DNA of 64,000 nucleotides from a bacterium (GTDB taxonomy: Bacteria > Patescibacteriota > Minisyncoccia > Portnoybacterales > JAKAHB01): positions 6,427-70,426 of the forward strand of contig JAKAHB010000002.1 in assembly GCA_021815315.1 (NCBI GenBank). Direction: 5' to 3'. Both the position numbers and the translations under genes were made by a program. Below are positions 4,501-57,131 of the stretch, piece after piece. Every line of letters begins with the position of its first letter. Within the stretch, counting starts at the first letter, position 1. The notes under the pieces are model-generated. The model had not been told where the DNA came from. It did no database searches and worked only from the letters and a program-made list of their open reading frames with translations.

Positions 4501-4979
4501 TAATTCTCCCCGCCGGCTAAGGCATTTTTGACCACCGTGGAAACCAAGTTGCCATCGGCCTGGCCTTTAAGTTCTTTCATCACCGCCGCCATAACTGTCC
4601 CTATGTCTTTGGCGCAAGAGGCTCCGTTTTTTGCCACCACCGACCGAACAACCTTTTTTATTTCTTCCTCGGACAGCTGCTCCGGTAAATAGGGCCAAAT
4701 GACGTCTATTTCTTCTTGCTCTTTGGCCGCCAGTTCCGGACGTCCTCCCTGTTCATATTGCTTGATTGCTTCTTTTCTTTTTTTTACTTCGCTTTGTAGC
4801 AAGGTTAAAATTTCTTCGTTAGTCAGTTGTTGTTCTTCTTCCGTTTTGCCCGCCGCTCTTTTTTCCAATTCCCTGTTTTTGACAGCGCTAAGCAGCAAAC
4901 GCAAAACGCCCACTTTTTTTTCTTCTTGGTTTTTGAAAGCGACTTTGAGCTCTTCGGCTAATTGATCTCTCAGGGACAT
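4500..4979 (-). CDS. GatB/YqeY domain protein
   Basis: 159 aa, helical and Lys/Glu-rich; its position between ybeY and rpsU is the typical yqeY neighbourhood. Confidence 0.65.
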   Translation of the reverse strand: MSLRDQLAEELKVAFKNQEEKKVGVLRLLLSAVKNRELEKRAAGKTEEEQQLTNEEILTLLQSEVKKRKEAIKQYEQGGRPELAAKEQEEIDVIWPYLPEQLSEEEIKKVVRSVVAKNGASCAKDIGTVMAAVMKELKGQADGNLVSTVVKNALAGGEN

Positions 4980-4987
4980 TTTTTTGT

Positions 4988-5263
4988 TTATAATTCTCCT
5001 CTTTGTTGCAGACGACGAATATGCTCTTTGGGCATCAGCTGTCCTTCTTCCAACAGTCCCAGTTTTGTCAATCTTTGTCTTTCTCCTCTTAACACTTCTC
5101 GGCGTTGAGCGCTGGCTCTTAATTGACGGCGATTCTTTTTCTTGCTGAAAAAACGCTTTTTCCTGGCCTCAATCAAAACACCGCTTTGCTGAACGCGTCG
5201 GGAAAAACGCCGCAATAGCGAAATAGTCGTCTCTCTTTCTTTCTTTTTCATTATTATAGGCAT
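4988..5263 (-). CDS. rpsU: 30S ribosomal protein S21
   Basis: Reads MPIIMKKKE...LLRRFSRRVQQSGVLIEARKKRFF. A strong SD (AAGGAGGTG) lies 9 nt upstream of the ATG at 5261-5263; the ORF-track start at 5272 is an upstream GTG. Confidence 0.85.
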   Translation of the reverse strand: MPIIMKKKERETTISLLRRFSRRVQQSGVLIEARKKRFFSKKKNRRQLRASAQRREVLRGERQRLTKLGLLEEGQLMPKEHIRRLQQRGEL

Positions 5264-8904: not shown

Positions 8905-9441
8905 ATGCGCGTTATAATTGGCCTGGGTAATCCCGGCAAAAAATATCAGAACAACCGACACAATCTGGGCTTTGTGATTATTGACGCCCTGACCCAAAAA
9001 CTGGGCGGCAGATTTGAATTAAATAAAAAATTCCAAGCCGAAATCGCTGAGACAACCTGGCACGGGGAAAAAATAATTCTAGCCAAACCGCAAACCTTTA
9101 TGAATAATTCCGGCCGGGCGACTCAAGCAATTTTAGATTTCTACAAAGAAACACCGAACAATCTGCTTGTGATCCACGACGACGTGGATATCCCCCTGGG
9201 AGAGATAAAACTGGTCATGGGCCAGGGTTCTGCCGGACACAACGGAGTAAATTCCATCATCCAGCGCTTAGGGACCAAAAACTTCCGACGCTTGCGAGCG
9301 GGCATTCAATCGGATAAACAAACGTCTTTTTGGGGCAATAAAAAACCGACTGATAAATTTGTCTTGCAAAATTTTTCTTCGGGAGAGAAAAAGAAATTGG
9401 CGGAAATCACAGAAAAAGCGGTTAGCCGACTAAACTCCTAA
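8905..9441 (+). CDS. pth: peptidyl-tRNA hydrolase
   Basis: Starts MRVIIGLGNPGKKYQNNRHNLGF. Confidence 0.9.
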   Translation: MRVIIGLGNPGKKYQNNRHNLGFVIIDALTQKLGGRFELNKKFQAEIAETTWHGEKIILAKPQTFMNNSGRATQAILDFYKETPNNLLVIHDDVDIPLGEIKLVMGQGSAGHNGVNSIIQRLGTKNFRRLRAGIQSDKQTSFWGNKKPTDKFVLQNFSSGEKKKLAEITEKAVSRLNS

Positions 9442-9456
9442 CTTTAATTTCAACCT

Positions 9457-9500
9457 AAAGACCCGTCCTTAACTAAAAGAGCGGGTCTTTAGGTTTTTTT
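9457..9500 (+). terminator. intrinsic terminator after pth
   Basis: aaagacccg...cgggtcttt hairpin followed by a T7 run. Confidence 0.75.
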
Positions 9501-9504
9501 ATTT

Positions 9505-9661
9505 TTTGTTTGGCAAGGCACTACCTGCAAGCCTCAGAAGGCGGTCCGACTAGCGGTTCCTTCCAAAATTAACAGCTACTGGCGAGAGAGTTAGGAGGGT
9601 TTTCTCTGCTTTGGCCACTCGCAGGTAGAGCGCTGCCAACAAAACTTTATCTTGTATTTGA
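9505..9661 (-). ncRNA. candidate small RNA, about 150 nt, with a GC-rich structured core
   Basis: Driven by the consensus promoter at 9668-9695. The core (9512-9625) is closed by an 8-bp helix CUACCUGC/GCAGGUAG and has internal hairpins. I see no convincing ORF and could not assign it to a known family. Confidence 0.3.
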
Positions 9662-9667
9662 TACTGT

Positions 9668-9695
9668 ATTATAGCAGAATAAAACATTTTGTCAA
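9668..9695 (-). promoter_or_regulatory. sigma-70-like promoter TTGACA-16-TATAAT
   Basis: Minus-strand reading gives TTGACAaaatgttttattctgcTATAAT. Confidence 0.5.
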
Positions 9696-9733
9696 GCGTA
9701 AGGCACTTCTTTGTCTTCTCTCCGAAAAACTGG

Positions 9734-9762
9734 TAAAAAAACCGCGGGCGTTGCACCCGCGG
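9734..9762 (-). terminator. intrinsic terminator of the GC-rich ORF at 9776-10195
   Basis: ccgcggg-cgttgca-cccgcgg hairpin with a U-run on the minus strand (plus-strand aaaaaaa at 9734-9741). Confidence 0.7.
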
Positions 9763-9775
9763 CACCAATTCAGGT

Positions 9776-10195
9776 TCAGGCATCAAGGCCTGAACGTTTT
9801 TTTTCCGGCTCGGCCGGTTTTGGCACCGCCGGGCAGATGATAACCCCGGCGTAGTGCCCCTCCTTGAAGAACAACTCCGGCTCCTGGAGGGGCGGGAAGT
9901 TGAACCTTTTTTCCAGCGCCTCCATGAGGAGCTGGGACTCGCTCCTCCCTTCTTTTTCTCCCCCCTCCCCCGAGAACGGGATGGCCCACTTCTTGCCCAT
10001 TTCGCCCATTTCGATTTCGTAGACGTTGTAGGCAAGAATCAACGTCTTCTTGCCGTCATTATCAAGGTGGAGCGTGATCCTCAGCTGCCCTATCGGCTCT
10101 TCACCGACCAGCTCCCCGGGGTCGGCCGAAACGAGCCCACCGCAGATCACCAGCAGGGCCAAGACGATCCCCACGACCACCAGAAACTTTTTCAT
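9776..10195 (-). CDS. hypothetical secreted/lipoprotein-like protein in a GC-rich cassette
   Basis: 139 aa with N-terminal signal peptide MKKFLVVVGIVLALLVICGG. SD GGGAGG 4 nt upstream. The segment is roughly 60% GC and uses GCC/CTG/GAC-type codons, unlike its neighbours. An alternative frame (9550-10035) is judged spurious. Confidence 0.5.
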   Translation of the reverse strand: MKKFLVVVGIVLALLVICGGLVSADPGELVGEEPIGQLRITLHLDNDGKKTLILAYNVYEIEMGEMGKKWAIPFSGEGGEKEGRSESQLLMEALEKRFNFPPLQEPELFFKEGHYAGVIICPAVPKPAEPEKKRSGLDA

Positions 10196-10315
10196 GACTC
10201 CCTCCCTTTACCAGTTCCAGCTGCACCGCAGGTCCCGCTCTTGGCGCCCACGATGCCTCCTCGCGATAGTCGCCCGGTTTTCCAGCCAATGTTTTTTCAG
10301 CAAAAGTTTGCTTCT

Positions 10316-10344
10316 ATTAAAAACTTTATCCTTGATTTTGTCAA
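10316..10344 (-). promoter_or_regulatory. sigma-70-like promoter TTGACA-17-TTTAAT for the 9776-10195 ORF
   Basis: Minus-strand reading gives TTGACAaaatcaaggataaagttTTTAAT, followed by a GC-rich leader of about 110 nt. Confidence 0.45.
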
Positions 10345-10384
10345 CGGCTTTGTGCTAGGATAGCTTAGCGTTGATCTTTTTTAA

Positions 10385-12322
10385 GTGAAAAGCAATCCAA
10401 ATAAAAATCTGCTTGTTGCCGCCATTACCCCCCAATTTTTGGAGCGGGACGTTTTGTGGTTTCAAAAAAACGAAAAGGGCCTGCGTCAAGAAATAGCCGC
10501 GAGCACTTTTCTGGGCCGCGGTTTGATCAGCCTGGAAATAAATCAACAGGTTAATCTCTTTGAGCTTCTAAAAAAACTAACCGACTTTGGCTACGAGCGC
10601 GTCCAGACCTTAAGCGGCCCCGGAGAATTTTTACAACAAGGCGGCAGCCTGCAAATTTTCCCCGTTAACCAGGAACAACCCTGGCAAATAGAATTTAAGG
10701 GTAAAGAAATTGAAACCCTCGCGCCTCTTGGGCTTGAACGCCTCAAAGAAACGAAAACCTTCAAGCTCAAGTCAATCAAAACCGAGGGCCTGGCGCGGAT
10801 CCTCAAAGAAAACGACTACGCCGTGCATCTGGATCATGGCATCGGCATTTATAAGGGAGTGATTGAAAGAAACCGGGAAAAATATTTTTTGCTGGCCTAC
10901 GCCAGAAACGACAAATTACTTGTGCCGCTGAAACTGGAAGAAAAAATCTCGCCCTATGTCGGGCTGGAAAAACCGATTGTGCACCGGCTCGGCGGCAGTC
11001 TGTGGCGCAACACCAAGCGCAAAGCCAAAGAAGACACCGTTAAATTCGCCCAGCAGTTGCTCGAACTCTATGCCGCTCGCGAACAAAGCCAAGGACACGC
11101 TTTTCCTAAAGAAACTTGGATGGAGAAAGAACTGGCCGCCGATTTTCCTTATCAAGAGACGCCCGACCAAGAGAAAGCCATCGCCGAAGTTTTTTGCGAT
11201 ATGGAAAAAGAAGCAGCTATGGATCATTTGGTTTGCGGCGATGTCGGCTTTGGCAAGACCGAAGTCGCTTTACGCGCCGCTTTTAAAGCGGTCCTGGCTG
11301 GGAAACAAGCGGCCATTCTGGCTCCAACCACAATTCTGGCCAAACAACATTGGGAAACTTTTAAAGCTCGGCTGGAAAAATTCAGCGTCCGCGCCGCTTT
11401 GCTCTCTCGCCTTACTCCCCAAAAAGAGCAGCCGCGAATTATTGAAGATTTAAACGCGGGCAAAATTGATATAGTCATTGGCACCCATCGCTTAATCCAA
11501 AAAGATGTCTCCTTTAAAGACTTGGGACTGTTGGTTATAGACGAAGAACAGCGATTTGGAGTCAAACAAAAAGAAAAACTTAAAACCCTGAAAGCCAGTG
11601 TTGATGTTTTGAGTCTCTCGGCCACTCCCATTCCCCGGACCCTGCACTTGGCGCTGGCCGGTTTGCGCCGCATTTCGCAAATTACCACTCCGCCGCTGGG
11701 ACGCCGAGCTATCAAAACTTTCGTTCTGCCCTCCAACCAAAAAATCGTCGCTCAAGCAATTAATTTTGAACTGCAGAGAGGGGGTCAGGTTTATTTTTTG
11801 CACAACCGCGTCGCCACCATTGAGGCGCAAGCGCGGCAACTCAAAAAACTTTTTCCTCAAGCGAAAATCGCCCGTATCCACGGGAGGCTCAACGAGCGGG
11901 AAATGACAAGGATTATTGACGATTTCAAAAATAAGAAAATTGATATTTTGGTGGCCACCACCATTATAGAAAACGGTCTTGATTTTCCCGCTGTTAACAC
12001 CTTGCTTGTCGCCGATGCGAGCCGTTTGGGACTAGCCCAGAGCTATCAGCTCCGCGGCCGCGTCGGCCGCTCTGATCTTCAAGCCTTTGCCTATTTTCTC
12101 TATCCGGCCAAACGTTTGACCCAAAAAGCGACCCAGCGCCTGGACGCCCTGCGGGAAGCCCAAAGTTTGGGTTCGGGTTACAATCTGGCGTTGCGCGATT
12201 TGGAAATTCGCGGCGCTGGCAACATCCTGGGCCGCGAACAATCGGGGGCTCTCAATACCGTGGGGCTAAATTTGTATTATCAAATGTTAAGCGAAACGAT
12301 TGAAGAATTGAGGGGGAAATAG
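10385..12322 (+). CDS. mfd: transcription-repair coupling factor Mfd, short form
   Basis: Helicase motif I (LVCGDVGFGKTEVALRAAF) and the TRG motif (QLRGRVGRS) match Mfd. At 645 aa it appears to lack the UvrB-homology N-terminal domains and the C-terminal D7. Confidence 0.8.
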   Translation: MKSNPNKNLLVAAITPQFLERDVLWFQKNEKGLRQEIAASTFLGRGLISLEINQQVNLFELLKKLTDFGYERVQTLSGPGEFLQQGGSLQIFPVNQEQPWQIEFKGKEIETLAPLGLERLKETKTFKLKSIKTEGLARILKENDYAVHLDHGIGIYKGVIERNREKYFLLAYARNDKLLVPLKLEEKISPYVGLEKPIVHRLGGSLWRNTKRKAKEDTVKFAQQLLELYAAREQSQGHAFPKETWMEKELAADFPYQETPDQEKAIAEVFCDMEKEAAMDHLVCGDVGFGKTEVALRAAFKAVLAGKQAAILAPTTILAKQHWETFKARLEKFSVRAALLSRLTPQKEQPRIIEDLNAGKIDIVIGTHRLIQKDVSFKDLGLLVIDEEQRFGVKQKEKLKTLKASVDVLSLSATPIPRTLHLALAGLRRISQITTPPLGRRAIKTFVLPSNQKIVAQAINFELQRGGQVYFLHNRVATIEAQARQLKKLFPQAKIARIHGRLNEREMTRIIDDFKNKKIDILVATTIIENGLDFPAVNTLLVADASRLGLAQSYQLRGRVGRSDLQAFAYFLYPAKRLTQKATQRLDALREAQSLGSGYNLALRDLEIRGAGNILGREQSGALNTVGLNLYYQMLSETIEELRGK

Positions 12323-12345: not shown

Positions 12346-13332
12346 TCAAAAAGCCTCGTTTCTTGAGACAAGTCTTAGTTTTGTTCCTTCTATCCGGCCC
12401 GTGTTTAAAAAGGTGTTTAAATGTTCCCTAGAATTAAGCGTGTTGTTTGGCACCAACCCTAAAATTATTGCGATAATTTGGTCTGTTGTTTGAATAAACA
12501 TTTTCATTTCAGGAGTTTTTACAGCGGTACTCATTTTCCCAAAGTGTACCAACCTATTTCGAGCGTTTACCAACAACCGAACATTATTCCTTTGTTTATT
12601 ATTAAGACTGATGCCTAAATATTTATATAAAACATAGGATATTTTAACTTCCGATTTTGTATCTTTAAGATCTTTATCCGAAAGCCACTCTCTATTTTCA
12701 ATAGAGAATAATGACTCCCAAATTGTCCATGCGGTAAGGAAAGATTTTTCTATAATCTGCCATCGGATCATGTCCCTATATAAAATAAGAAAATATCCGT
12801 CATCGTATATATCCCTCCATTTGTTGGTTGAAACATGCTCTATCACCTTTTCAATTGCTGCATCAAATCCGGAAGAAACCCATTCCATGTCCCAAATAGG
12901 AATTCCGTTGGCAGTTTCCGGGTCAATAATTTCACCAGTGGCCTTGACCTTAAATTTTGAATTTAAATTTATAGACAACCTCAACTGACCGCCAAAAGCC
13001 GTATGCGGACGATAATCTTCTATTATTGGTTCCTCTCCGTTCCAGTCCTTAGCAAAAACATTTCTGCCAGTAAAAATAGAAAGAAAAAATAGAATGTCGT
13101 GAAGCTTTGTAAGAGCGGCATTTTCAAAGATCAAGGTTGCTTTTGCCTCTGTATCTGGGATACTCACTGTTGCGGTTATTTGATGGCTGCCTGTTATTTG
13201 GGTGACACTGTAATTAGGCATTAACCCGTACGCTTCGTCATAATTTGAAACTGCGTCAAAGACGTAATTACAAATATTTAACTGACGTACACCAGTAGGA
13301 AATTCTAAATTGTAAATAGATTTGTTCTCCAT
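12346..13332 (-). CDS. hypothetical two-domain protein with a C-terminal HEPN-like motif (Rx4-6H)
   Basis: 328 aa in an AT-rich segment. The C-terminal helical region contains NARNRLVHFG, which fits 'RNxxxH'. No other recognisable motifs. Confidence 0.45.
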   Translation of the reverse strand: MENKSIYNLEFPTGVRQLNICNYVFDAVSNYDEAYGLMPNYSVTQITGSHQITATVSIPDTEAKATLIFENAALTKLHDILFFLSIFTGRNVFAKDWNGEEPIIEDYRPHTAFGGQLRLSINLNSKFKVKATGEIIDPETANGIPIWDMEWVSSGFDAAIEKVIEHVSTNKWRDIYDDGYFLILYRDMIRWQIIEKSFLTAWTIWESLFSIENREWLSDKDLKDTKSEVKISYVLYKYLGISLNNKQRNNVRLLVNARNRLVHFGKMSTAVKTPEMKMFIQTTDQIIAIILGLVPNNTLNSREHLNTFLNTGRIEGTKLRLVSRNEAF

Positions 13333-14867: not shown

Positions 14868-15061
14868 GACTATACCTTGTTTTATACGCGTTTCCCCTTC
14901 TTTTCTTTCTTTATTATATAATGCCGGCCTTGCCCGTTGTAAAGACCCGACCTTATGGCGGTTCGGACGGAAGACAATTTCCGCCTTGGTGAACTTTGGC
15001 CCGGTATTTGTTTCTTGCCGCTTGTCTGTCCGTCCCAGCGAACGGCTTGTGGGGAATAAAT

Positions 15062-15093
15062 AAAAAAAGCGGGGGCCGCGTGTGCGACCCCCT
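15062..15093 (-). terminator. intrinsic terminator of the small Cys-containing ORF
   Basis: gggggtcgcacacgcggccccc hairpin followed by a U7 run on the minus strand. Confidence 0.65.
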
Positions 15094-15148
15094 TGGGTTG
15101 TTCCTCCAGAAGCGCGAGGCCTGTGGCGCTCCACCAGGCCAGGGGGGC

Positions 15149-15376
15149 CTAGGTGGTGGCGATGCTGGCCAGGACGTTGGCCAAAAGCTCCTGCTTGATG
15201 CGCACGGCGCCCTCGCCGTGCCCGATCTTGCCTTCCAACTCCGTGGCGGCGCCCACGATGATGAGGTCGCCGGTGGCCTCGTCCTTGAACACGGCCGGGC
15301 AGCAGGAGCTGCCGCCGCACCTCTGATGCAGCGGGGTTAAGTTGGTCAGGCTGACTTTCTTCTTAACGGCGCTCAT
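15149..15376 (-). CDS. small hypothetical Cys-containing protein (75 aa) in a GC-rich cassette
   Basis: Reads MSAVKKKVSLTNLTPLHQRCGGSSCCPAVFKDEATGDLIIVGAATELEGKIGHGEGAVRIKQ.... A strong SD (GAGGAGG) sits immediately upstream, with a 7-bp hairpin abutting it. The segment is about 65% GC. Confidence 0.45.
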   Translation of the reverse strand: MSAVKKKVSLTNLTPLHQRCGGSSCCPAVFKDEATGDLIIVGAATELEGKIGHGEGAVRIKQELLANVLASIATT

Positions 15377-15428
15377 AGAAACCTCCTCGCGGACCCTGCA
15401 AAGGTCCGCCGTTTTGGGTTGATTTTTT

Positions 15429-15457
15429 CATTATAGGCATTATCCCAAACTTGTCAA
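15429..15457 (-). promoter_or_regulatory. sigma-70-like promoter TTGACA-17-TATAAT for the small Cys ORF
   Basis: Minus-strand reading gives TTGACAagtttgggataatgccTATAAT. Confidence 0.5.
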
Positions 15458-22944: not shown

Positions 22945-23029
22945 GGGCGAGTGGCGAAACCGGCAGACGCGCACGACTCAAAATCGTGTGAGGCAACTCA
23001 TGAGGGTTCAAGTCCCTCCTCGCCCACCA
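22945..23029 (+). tRNA. tRNA-Leu (anticodon CAA), class II with a long variable arm and encoded CCA
   Basis: Hand-folded cloverleaf. Acceptor GGGCGAG/CTCGCCC, D-arm GCG-AAACCGGCAGA-CGC, anticodon stem CACGA/TCGTG with loop CTCAAAA, variable hairpin TGAG-GCAA-CTCA, T-arm GAGGG-TTCAAGT-CCCTC, then A-CCA. The acceptor helix is extended by an additional ~14-bp flanking inverted repeat (ttatcgcgaaaatggt / accattttcgcgata). Confidence 0.85.
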
Positions 23030-30242: not shown

Positions 30243-30641
30243 CTACTCTTTAGCGGCGGAATTCAAAATTCTCTTTGGCTGTACAAATTTCTGATGAAAA
30301 TTAACAATAATTCCTAACTTTTTGTTAAGACAAACTAAATAACGTTTAATCTGATAATAATCGCTCCTTGCCAAAAATCTTTTTGTTTTTACTTCCAAGA
30401 CAATTTTATCCTCAATTAAAAAATCTACTCTATTTCTATTTTTTTCTCCTTCAAAAGAAGGGGGCAAGATTTTTTCTCTTTCATAGATAACTTTGGCGTT
30501 TTTCAGTTTTTGCTCAATACAATCGCAATATTGCTTTTCGTTCAAATAGTCACCCAGCTCCATTTTAGCCTGAAACAAAATGCCGTTTATTTGATAAGAA
30601 AGTGCTGGATATATAACTTTAGTAAAATTACTACCCTCCAT
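30243..30641 (-). CDS. GxxExxY family protein (PD-(D/E)XK nuclease-like)
   Basis: 132 aa with the NGILFQAKMELGDYLNEKQY...VDFLIEDKIVLEVK...GIIVNF pattern typical of the GxxExxY family. Confidence 0.7.
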   Translation of the reverse strand: MEGSNFTKVIYPALSYQINGILFQAKMELGDYLNEKQYCDCIEQKLKNAKVIYEREKILPPSFEGEKNRNRVDFLIEDKIVLEVKTKRFLARSDYYQIKRYLVCLNKKLGIIVNFHQKFVQPKRILNSAAKE

Positions 30642-54054: not shown

Positions 54055-54435
54055 GGGGACGCTAGGCTTCGACAGTCTGTCTAGCTTAGTATTCAAGCCG
54101 AGTACGCAGGAATCTCGCAAAACTTCTTGCAGTCTCACAAATGCCAACTTTATGGCTAGAGTGAAGAGCGCTTTCAGCGTCCCTTCATTCGCTACCGCTT
54201 TAGCTTAAAAACCTAGAGCCATCCGACTTACGGATACTCAATAAGTAAGATCCGGGTGTCATTTCATTGAGTTAGGCTAGGTCACGCTGTGGGATTTAGC
54301 CAAAACCAAAACAGCTACGGTTAAAAGATTTTGGTCCGCTTATATCTTCTAACCCGAACAAATTAAGCGGAATAAGCTTGTAAAATTACTAAGTAATGCC
54401 TGACTGGACAGGGGTTCAATTCCCCTCGTCTCCAC
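54055..54435 (+). ncRNA. ssrA: tmRNA (transfer-messenger RNA)
   Basis: 5' GGGGACGCUAGGCUUCGACAG resembles the tmRNA 5' end. 3' GGACAGGGGUUCAAUUCCCCUCGUCUCCACC gives a tRNA-Ala-like T-arm and acceptor with a G3-U70 pair. An internal tag ORF reads ...ARVKSAFSVPSFATALA-stop (about 54150-54208). Sits directly after smpB. Confidence 0.85.
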
Positions 54436-54517
54436 CGCGTTCGGGTTTAATGTTCTGCTTGAACGCGAATTAAAGACCAAGAACCCCCATTAAAGTCCAC
54501 CATTAAATTAACCATTC

Positions 54518-56847: not shown

Positions 56848-56875
56848 TTGACAAAAACATTCTTTATGATATAAT
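56848..56875 (+). promoter_or_regulatory. consensus sigma-70 promoter TTGACA-16-TATAAT
   Basis: ttgacaaaaacattctttatgatataat; perfect hexamers. Confidence 0.55.
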
Positions 56876-56902
56876 ATAAGCAACTTTAACAGGAGGAAAG
56901 CC

Positions 56903-57094
56903 ATGGCCCCGAGAGCCTGTGTCGTCCTTCTGGAGCGGGGATGGACGCTGGAGGCGCCCTCTCCGGTCGTTCTTGGACCGAACGGCCGGCCCGCTACGCC
57001 CACTACCGGAACCTTGGTCCCGGTGACAACGGCAGAGAAGACTGCCGGAAAGGAGATCAACGTTGTTGTCCTCCCCGTTCTCCCCCACCGCTAA
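56903..57094 (+). CDS. small hypothetical protein (63 aa) in a GC-rich cassette
   Basis: SD AGGAGG 6 nt upstream of ATG. About 63% GC. Followed by the terminator at 57106-57131. Confidence 0.4.
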   Translation: MAPRACVVLLERGWTLEAPSPVVLGPNGRPATPTTGTLVPVTTAEKTAGKEINVVVLPVLPHR

Positions 57095-57105
57095 ACTCCC
57101 TCCCT

Positions 57106-57131
57106 CGGAGCCCCCACGGGCTCCTTTTTGA
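57106..57131 (+). terminator. intrinsic terminator of the 56903-57094 ORF
   Basis: ggagccc-ccac-gggctcc followed by a T5 run. Confidence 0.7.

Follow-up and report, generated by a model that had tools for sequence, protein, structure and literature searches.

The window, that is the whole 64,000-nt stretch of DNA that was analysed, carries between positions 9734 and 10344 a GC-rich cassette on the minus strand around a coding sequence of 139 codons, referred to here as ORF139. The preliminary description had listed a promoter of the form TTGACA-17-TTTAAT, a Shine-Dalgarno sequence, the 139-aa ORF and a terminator, all of which are present as sequence features, and its statement of a long GC-rich leader was confirmed with regard to length and base composition. 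The cassette consists of the following features:

10316..10344, minus strand: promoter-like site read from the sequence, with TTGACA at 10344-10339, a 17-nt spacer and TTTAAT at 10321-10316
10196..10309, minus strand: presumed 5' untranslated region of ~114 nt with 57% GC
10198..10206, minus strand: strong Shine-Dalgarno sequence GGGAGGGAG, 2 nt ahead of the ATG at 10195
9776..10195, minus strand: ORF139 coding sequence for 139 aa, taken from the ORF list, with the predicted signal peptide at 10195-10124 and the mature part of 115 aa at 10123-9779
9735..9763, minus strand: intrinsic terminator called by a scanner, GCCGCGGGTG-CAA-CGCCCGCGGT followed by T7

By sigma-70 criteria, the promoter-like site features a -35 box with six of six matching positions, a 17-nt spacer and a -10 box (TTTAAT) with five of six matches and T for A at position 2, which is why a consensus scanner did not call it. 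The -35 box and the AT-rich -10 region are kept in both sister contigs described below (L086 and L087), in which the Shine-Dalgarno sequence is conserved as GGGGAGGGAAG and the same hairpin with a T-run follows the gene. In the window, this terminator is formed by a 10-bp stem with 8 GC pairs at 9763-9741 and the adjoining T7, starting 12 nt past the ORF139 stop. Besides, a plus-strand hairpin followed by T8 lies within the last ORF139 codons (9774-9795) and resembles a terminator for antisense transcription; it is missing from the orthologues, whose C-termini differ.

With 56.0% GC, the 611-nt interval from 9734 to 10344 stands out against the 45.1 +/- 3.4% of all segments of this length in the 64 kb, only 0.5% of which, at two places, reach such a value. 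The atypical coding composition that had been proposed for the ORF was borne out by quantitative codon analysis. The coding sequence has 58.1% GC and a GC3 of 0.77, as compared to 0.498 +/- 0.046 in 49 long ORFs (z +5.9), with a normal GC2 of 0.35 and an enrichment of G/C-ending codons across nearly all amino acids (GGG, GAG, AAG, CAG, CTC, ATC, TTC, TAC). The synonymous-codon likelihood differs from that of the host ORFs with a z of -2.6, and the resulting fit to host codons is the third lowest among 49 ORFs, the lowest being that of ORF139's own antisense shadow. As the genes for IF3, L35 and L20 show a GC3 of 0.41-0.50, which is ordinary for the window, the bias does not reflect the host's high-expression codon usage.

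Homologues were sought in 5.8 and 1.84 billion clustered proteins, by word-indexed as well as exhaustive HMMER searching. Among 15 billion proteins, the only relatives of ORF139 that were found are P0002 (E 2e-24) and P0004, which align over the full length with 42-43% identity and are encoded at the identical syntenic position in the two sister Parcubacteria contigs. These share the order mfd, ORF139 orthologue (on the opposite strand), small-RNA gene, pth, lytR, lepB and hisS. The database models of both proteins carry a spurious N-terminal extension of 23-25 residues; according to the conserved Shine-Dalgarno sequence and ATG, the true start lies at Met24 or Met26, which gives a length of 139 aa. 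Within the window species, the contigs do not differ over the ORF139 region. Between the two sister orthologues, dN/dS amounts to 0.24 and a placement test revealed a deficit of nonsynonymous changes in the ORF139 frame (P 0.008), selection analyses which lean on the thin sample of three orthologues. A deficit of this kind recurs in just one other frame, an antisense frame that shares the third positions and contains 3-6 stops. This frame-specific deficit and the GC excess at codon position 3 establish ORF139 as a real protein-coding gene, restricted to one lineage. The antisense ORF of 169 aa at 9854-10363 on the plus strand was discarded as a shadow, since a GC1 of 0.75 mirrors the sense GC3 and nonsynonymous changes are in excess in this frame. 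ORF139 is the fastest-evolving protein of its neighbourhood, a clear outlier among 13 with 43% identity to its orthologue versus 67-91% for the 12 neighbouring proteins, and yet it is under purifying selection between close relatives.

The classical signal peptide suggested in the preliminary description was examined by rule-based checks on the three orthologues, and its n-, h- and c-regions could be assigned. In the window protein, the predicted signal peptide of 24 residues comprises the n-region MKK, an h-region of 15 residues (F4-C18) and the c-region GGLVSA. In all three orthologues, the basic n-region (MKK, MRK and MKK) precedes 15-21 uncharged residues, and hydrophobicity by the Kyte-Doolittle(11) measure peaks with values of 2.5-3.5 at residues 6-7; none contains a second hydrophobic segment. 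The position of the predicted SPase I site is likewise conserved, with VSA|DP in the window and VFA|DA in both sisters, so that the motif V-x-A|D recurs in 3/3 orthologues in agreement with the rule-based criteria for Sec export and SPase I processing. Gly occupies position -6 in all three, and in the window protein also position -5. ORF139 thereby shares with Sec-dependent, SPase I-processed secreted proteins the tripartite signal peptide and the small residues at -3/-1 throughout the three orthologues. A Sec signal peptide with SPase I cleavage after Ala24 is the most likely interpretation of these residues.

The predicted mature protein has 115 aa, ~12.8 kDa, a pI of ~4.9, a Pro/Lys-rich tail and one conserved Cys (C121). 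An AlphaFold model built on a shallow alignment contains a beta3-alpha-beta2 core (pLDDT 77-87), with residues 1-29 unstructured and residues 30-125 folded. Foldseek searches with this model gave no meaningful match, the best E values being 0.058 in the PDB and 0.029 in BFVD. In addition, searches of Pfam, NCBIfam, PHROGs and PADLOC as well as a PDB sequence profile returned no match. The search for homologues and genomic context that had been recommended was thus successful for two syntenic orthologues and returned neither a domain nor a fold.

Surface proteins of the CPR are often membrane-tethered. The N-terminal segment could accordingly be an uncleaved signal anchor, making ORF139 a type II membrane protein whose 115-aa domain is tethered on the outer membrane face, and in the window protein the uncharged stretch of 19-21 residues, 21 when counted from F4 to A24, can span a membrane. 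Nevertheless, this run is just 15 residues long in the orthologues, and a helix-breaking Gly at -6 combined with V-x-A|D at the same place in 3/3 proteins is the pattern of cleaved signal peptides. The anchor is accordingly regarded as unlikely, albeit as a reading with an appreciable chance of being correct.

Downstream of ORF139 and outside the cassette, the minus strand carries a small-RNA gene:

9452-9695, minus strand: small-RNA gene with its own promoter, core and terminator
9668..9695, minus strand: small-RNA promoter, 12/12 consensus positions (TTGACA-16-TATAAT, with TG), conserved in L086 and L087
9505..9646, minus strand: small-RNA core of ~142 nt with a 25-bp closing helix, two internal hairpins and the loop CCCUCCU
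9452-9495: bidirectional terminator of the small RNA

The RNA folds with a z of -3.4 and contains the invariant pair CUGCGA...UCGCAG, and its loop CCCUCCU resembles an anti-Shine-Dalgarno sequence. Copies in the sister contigs were located at 2739-2978 (L086) and ~4874-5113 (L087). Other Parcubacteria were recovered via Mfd (best identity 46-55%), and in these pth immediately precedes mfd in the same orientation, usually with a gap of 11-320 nt. Covariance-model matches were obtained in the pth-mfd spacer of six of these distant genomes, at the following positions:

L010: 2-176
L011: 3836-3955
L014: 3777-3911
L015: 3832-3958
L016: 3814-3952
L021: 3729-3868

In 6/6 of them, the CCCUCCU-bearing match runs in the opposite direction to pth and mfd, and the small RNA abuts the mfd start; a promoter resembling TTGAC.-17-TATAAT precedes it in L010, L011, L015, L016 and L021. 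Double changes affect 28/41 pairs of the proposed structure, in which 87% of the cells are paired versus 41-51% in slid controls. A search of Rfam (Rfam 15) yielded no family for the small RNA in the window or at five other loci, so that SRP RNA, 6S RNA, Y RNA or similar known RNAs failed as candidates. Regulatory sRNAs with C-rich loops, e.g., RsaE/RoxS of Firmicutes, pair with Shine-Dalgarno regions. The small RNA is like these in that it is encoded on its own between a separate promoter and terminator and exposes CCCUCCU in a hairpin loop, but differs in its architecture with the 25-bp closing helix and two internal hairpins, in its restriction to the pth-mfd spacer of some Parcubacteria, and in having no Rfam match. 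As a family supported by covariation, present in several Parcubacteria and without match in Rfam, it is more novel and of more lasting interest than the ORF139 cassette itself.

Since the spacer between pth and mfd holds only the small-RNA gene in the six distant Parcubacteria, the small-RNA gene ancestrally stood between pth and mfd. The ~650 bp that extend from the terminator of ORF139 to its promoter are thus an insert that is specific to the lineage of the window, L086 and L087, with the small-RNA promoter marking its pth-proximal (lower-coordinate) edge. The insert is not recent, as the sister neighbours are only 67-91% identical and GC3 is still raised in the orthologues (0.61-0.62). The only flanking repeat is the 10-mer TTGACAAAAT, which occurs at both insert edges, at 9686-9695 and at 10335-10344 on the minus strand. 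It was set aside as a target-site duplication: it consists of the -35 box and four further bases, and a one-base variant, TTGACAAAAA, opens an unrelated 12/12 promoter at 56848. Stretches of 19 nt downstream of the two copies (9641-9659 and 10320-10338) are 84% identical. The pair is probably due to an extended -35 preference and chance, while copying of the small-RNA promoter at the time of the insertion may also have produced it. No part of the stretch 9440-10400 recurs in the 64-kb window, and a diversity-generating retroelement or another repeat origin was rejected on this ground.

The preliminary description had regarded the cassette as compositionally foreign DNA that could carry an acquired protein gene. 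Of this proposal, the atypical composition and the absence of the insert from distant relatives stood, whereas a recent transfer did not. The idea that a foreign gene, for instance a mobile or phage-derived effector, arrived lately draws on the GC3 excess and poor codon fit, on the ordinary GC3 of the ribosomal-protein and IF3 genes, which takes high-expression usage out of consideration, and on the lack of the cassette between pth and mfd in Parcubacteria that are more distant. However, ORF139 occupies the same site in both sister genomes at hand, so that a patchy presence is not seen, and its GC3 is still raised there despite the divergence of the flanking proteins. Moreover, neither an integrase nor a transposase was found near ORF139, scans of phage DNA and of viral contigs with protein alignment were empty, and so was a scan of JGI metagenome contigs with the small-RNA pattern and a LytR alignment; a plasmid-like relative did not turn up either. 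At least two other small stand-alone genes of the window also share the bias, one of them with a GC3 of 0.86-0.91 in both lineages. A recent transfer is therefore considered improbable. Horizontally acquired genomic islets (ORFans) resemble the insert in their atypical GC content and codon usage and in their absence at the locus in distant relatives. The insert lacks mobility genes, flanking repeats and donor homologues, and unlike such islets it is shared by species with clearly diverged neighbouring proteins without its composition having drifted to the host level. Accordingly, the oddity in composition is old and common to other small genes, and should not be taken for fresh horizontal transfer.

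These other small genes are located in two further cassettes:

15060-15457, minus strand: second GC-rich cassette with a 12/12 promoter at 15457-15430, a conserved short leader and a terminator near 15090-15062
56848-57130, plus strand: third, small GC-rich cassette with a 12/12 promoter at 56848-56875, a Shine-Dalgarno sequence, an ORF and a downstream hairpin with a T-run

The second one encodes a Cys-rich protein of 75 aa (15149-15376, minus strand; 64% GC, GC3 0.91), whose orthologue in L087 is 69% identical and has a GC3 of 0.86; Pfam and PADLOC contained no match to it. The third includes an ORF of 63 aa (56903-57094, plus strand; 65% GC, GC3 0.70), and its search against Rfam and PADLOC gave no match. 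Both ORFs lie behind a 12/12 consensus promoter and before a terminator-like hairpin with a T-run. Each of the four 12/12 promoters in the window serves a small stand-alone gene or the small RNA. The fourth of them (61514-61486, minus strand) is situated upstream of a zinc-ribbon-like CxxC protein of 110 aa (61372-61040). It is conceivable that ORF139 belongs to a distinct class of small stand-alone genes which are kept at a GC3 of 0.70-0.92 in a genome with 45% GC over long divergence. Such a class would imply an unusual mutational or selective regime, e.g., hot spots of recombination or gene conversion or repeated replacement from a GC-rich partner, and ORF139 would then be a secreted factor that co-evolves rapidly and that the episymbiont deploys on its host; as a whole, this scenario is rather speculative and improbable.

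The leader of ORF139 had been described as long, structured and possibly regulatory, a view that had to be abandoned. Its predicted minimum free energy does not differ from that of shuffled sequence (z -0.76), and a search of Rfam gave no relevant match at E<=10. Its ends align to the sister contigs, where the middle is missing or unalignable. The matching interval there is ~310 nt long and contains an ORF of 87 or 89 codons led by a Shine-Dalgarno sequence. The corresponding features are:

L086 1965-2228 and L087 4094-4363: intact upstream Arg-rich ORF, the first cistron before the ORF139 orthologues
10208..10303 of the window, minus strand: remnant of this ORF, identified by translation and alignment, with its last ~29-31 codons ending in WNW-stop

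The product of the Arg-rich ORF is very basic (pI ~12) and ends in WNW, and in the sisters its stop abuts the Shine-Dalgarno sequence of ORF139. Between L086 and L087, 55 substitutions and one in-frame indel of 6 nt were counted, with a dN/dS of 0.21 and a frame-specific nonsynonymous deficit (P=0.004). Its dS of 0.71, as compared to 0.13-0.15 in flanking genes, marks a local divergence hot spot. The ORF has zero homologues in protein databases, where it is also not called as a gene, and matches nothing in Pfam, NCBIfam, PHROGs or PADLOC. When the window is aligned to the sisters, the promoter and the first few transcribed bases correspond, followed by a clean gap of ~210 nt and again by correspondence over the last ~29 codons. 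The remnant agrees with the C-terminus of the L086 ORF in 11/29 identical and 19/29 similar residues, in the same frame and with the same WNW-stop, and its TAA (10210-10208) lies immediately 5' of the ORF139 Shine-Dalgarno sequence. Neither a Shine-Dalgarno sequence nor an ATG precedes it; an in-frame TTG at 10303 is only ~6 nt away from the expected transcription start. Thus, the leader is what is left of the 3' end of an upstream Arg-rich ORF, which both sister genomes have in intact form. The ~210-nt indel is most simply read as a 5' deletion of the upstream cistron in the window lineage, its polarity being presumed.

In view of this history, the ancestral Arg-rich protein of 87 aa and the exported protein might have formed a toxin/immunity or bacteriocin-like pair, of which the window keeps the exported half only. 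The bicistronic arrangement with overlapping stop and Shine-Dalgarno sequence would be in line with such a pair, as would the fact that both cistrons are orphan and fast-evolving, including the high dS of the upstream one. Still, neither protein matches PADLOC, Pfam or PHROG, the Arg-rich ORF is without homologues, and the survival of the exported protein on its own in the window fits poorly with a toxin that needs a partner, which makes this pairing quite improbable.

In genomes richer in AT, long intergenic stretches of high GC content are a known mark of structured RNAs (PMC8723152). The GC-rich interval might on this basis be a structured non-coding RNA or a riboswitch-type leader in which the ORF is incidental, the more so as a real structured RNA lies immediately downstream of ORF139. 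The low folding score of the leader, the empty Rfam search and the GC excess at codon position 3 contradict this, as does conservation, which acts at the protein level and in one frame while the leader and ORF DNA are largely unalignable between the lineages; an RNA origin is consequently very improbable. With riboswitches and structured 5' leaders of the Rfam cis-regulatory families, the ORF139 leader has in common the GC-rich stretch of ~114 nt from promoter to Shine-Dalgarno sequence, but it differs by the lack of a family, of excess folding energy and of a conserved middle, and by its homology to a coding 3' end. Least credible is a lipoprotein anchored via Cys18, the possible lipobox of the preliminary description: a Cys does follow the hydrophobic stretch (LLVIC18GG), but with Ile at -1 LVIC lies outside the pattern [LVI][ASTVI][GAS]C, which is unmatched in 3/3 orthologues, and Cys18 is replaced by Tyr in P0002 and P0004. 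The reassignment of the leader to a gene remnant instead of a riboswitch and the dismissal of Cys18 as a lipobox are of corrective value for the annotation of this locus.

Taken together, ORF139 is reasonably probably a lineage-restricted gene of Parcubacteria (CPR) whose Sec-exported and SPase I-cleaved product has a surface or extracellular role, and which resides on an old GC-rich insert behind a leader that is the relic of an upstream cistron. According to this favoured reading, the ~650-bp GC-rich insert carrying ORF139 separates the ancestral small-RNA gene and mfd. In the sister genomes, ORF139 is the latter of two genes in an operon headed by the Arg-rich ORF of 87-89 aa. The window genome lacks ~210 nt of the upstream ORF, the 3' remnant presumably being untranslated and ORF139 depending on its own strong Shine-Dalgarno sequence. 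The signal peptide would direct the protein to the Sec translocon, and SPase I would cut after Ala24 and release an acidic alpha/beta domain of ~12.8 kDa with its Pro/Lys-rich tail outside the cytoplasmic membrane. There, ORF139 may act at the cell surface or in the medium and contact host or partner cells or phage. Fast evolution together with purifying selection between close relatives suggests a surface or extracellular rather than a housekeeping role, and in combination with the export signals it points to a possible effector function. Alternatively, the protein could be dispensable and its fast evolution a consequence of relaxed constraint.

Much of the genomes of CPR/Patescibacteria is made up of genes for small, lineage-specific hypothetical proteins that are secreted or located at the surface. 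ORF139 is like them in being small, orphan, predicted to be exported, confined to a narrow clade and placed among core genes. Compared to them, it adds a strong GC3 excess, the fastest divergence in its neighbourhood and a documented history, i.e., the insertion beside an ancestral small-RNA gene and the loss of the upstream partner ORF. CPR bacteria probably live in attachment to other cells, and hardly any of the exported proteins that mediate this are known. As a predicted exported protein that evolves faster than its neighbours, ORF139 is a reasonable candidate for this cell-contact interface.

Some further features of the window deviate in composition in the opposite direction. A gene of 328 aa at 12346-13332 on the minus strand has only 36% GC and a GC3 of 0.35, lies between mfd and a membrane-protein/ECF-sigma pair and has only weak, sub-threshold HEPN-like matches in Pfam; as it is missing from the syntenic L087 contig, it represents a variable islet. 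An ORF of 132 aa (30243-30641, minus strand) with 31% GC and a GC3 of 0.29 is located in the window's lowest-GC kilobase (33.6%). In addition, the window contains a tmRNA at 54055-54437 on the plus strand with the tag ANFMARVKSAFSVPSFATALA and a tRNA-Leu(CAA) at 22945-23029, also on the plus strand, which are its only Rfam matches at the gathering threshold.
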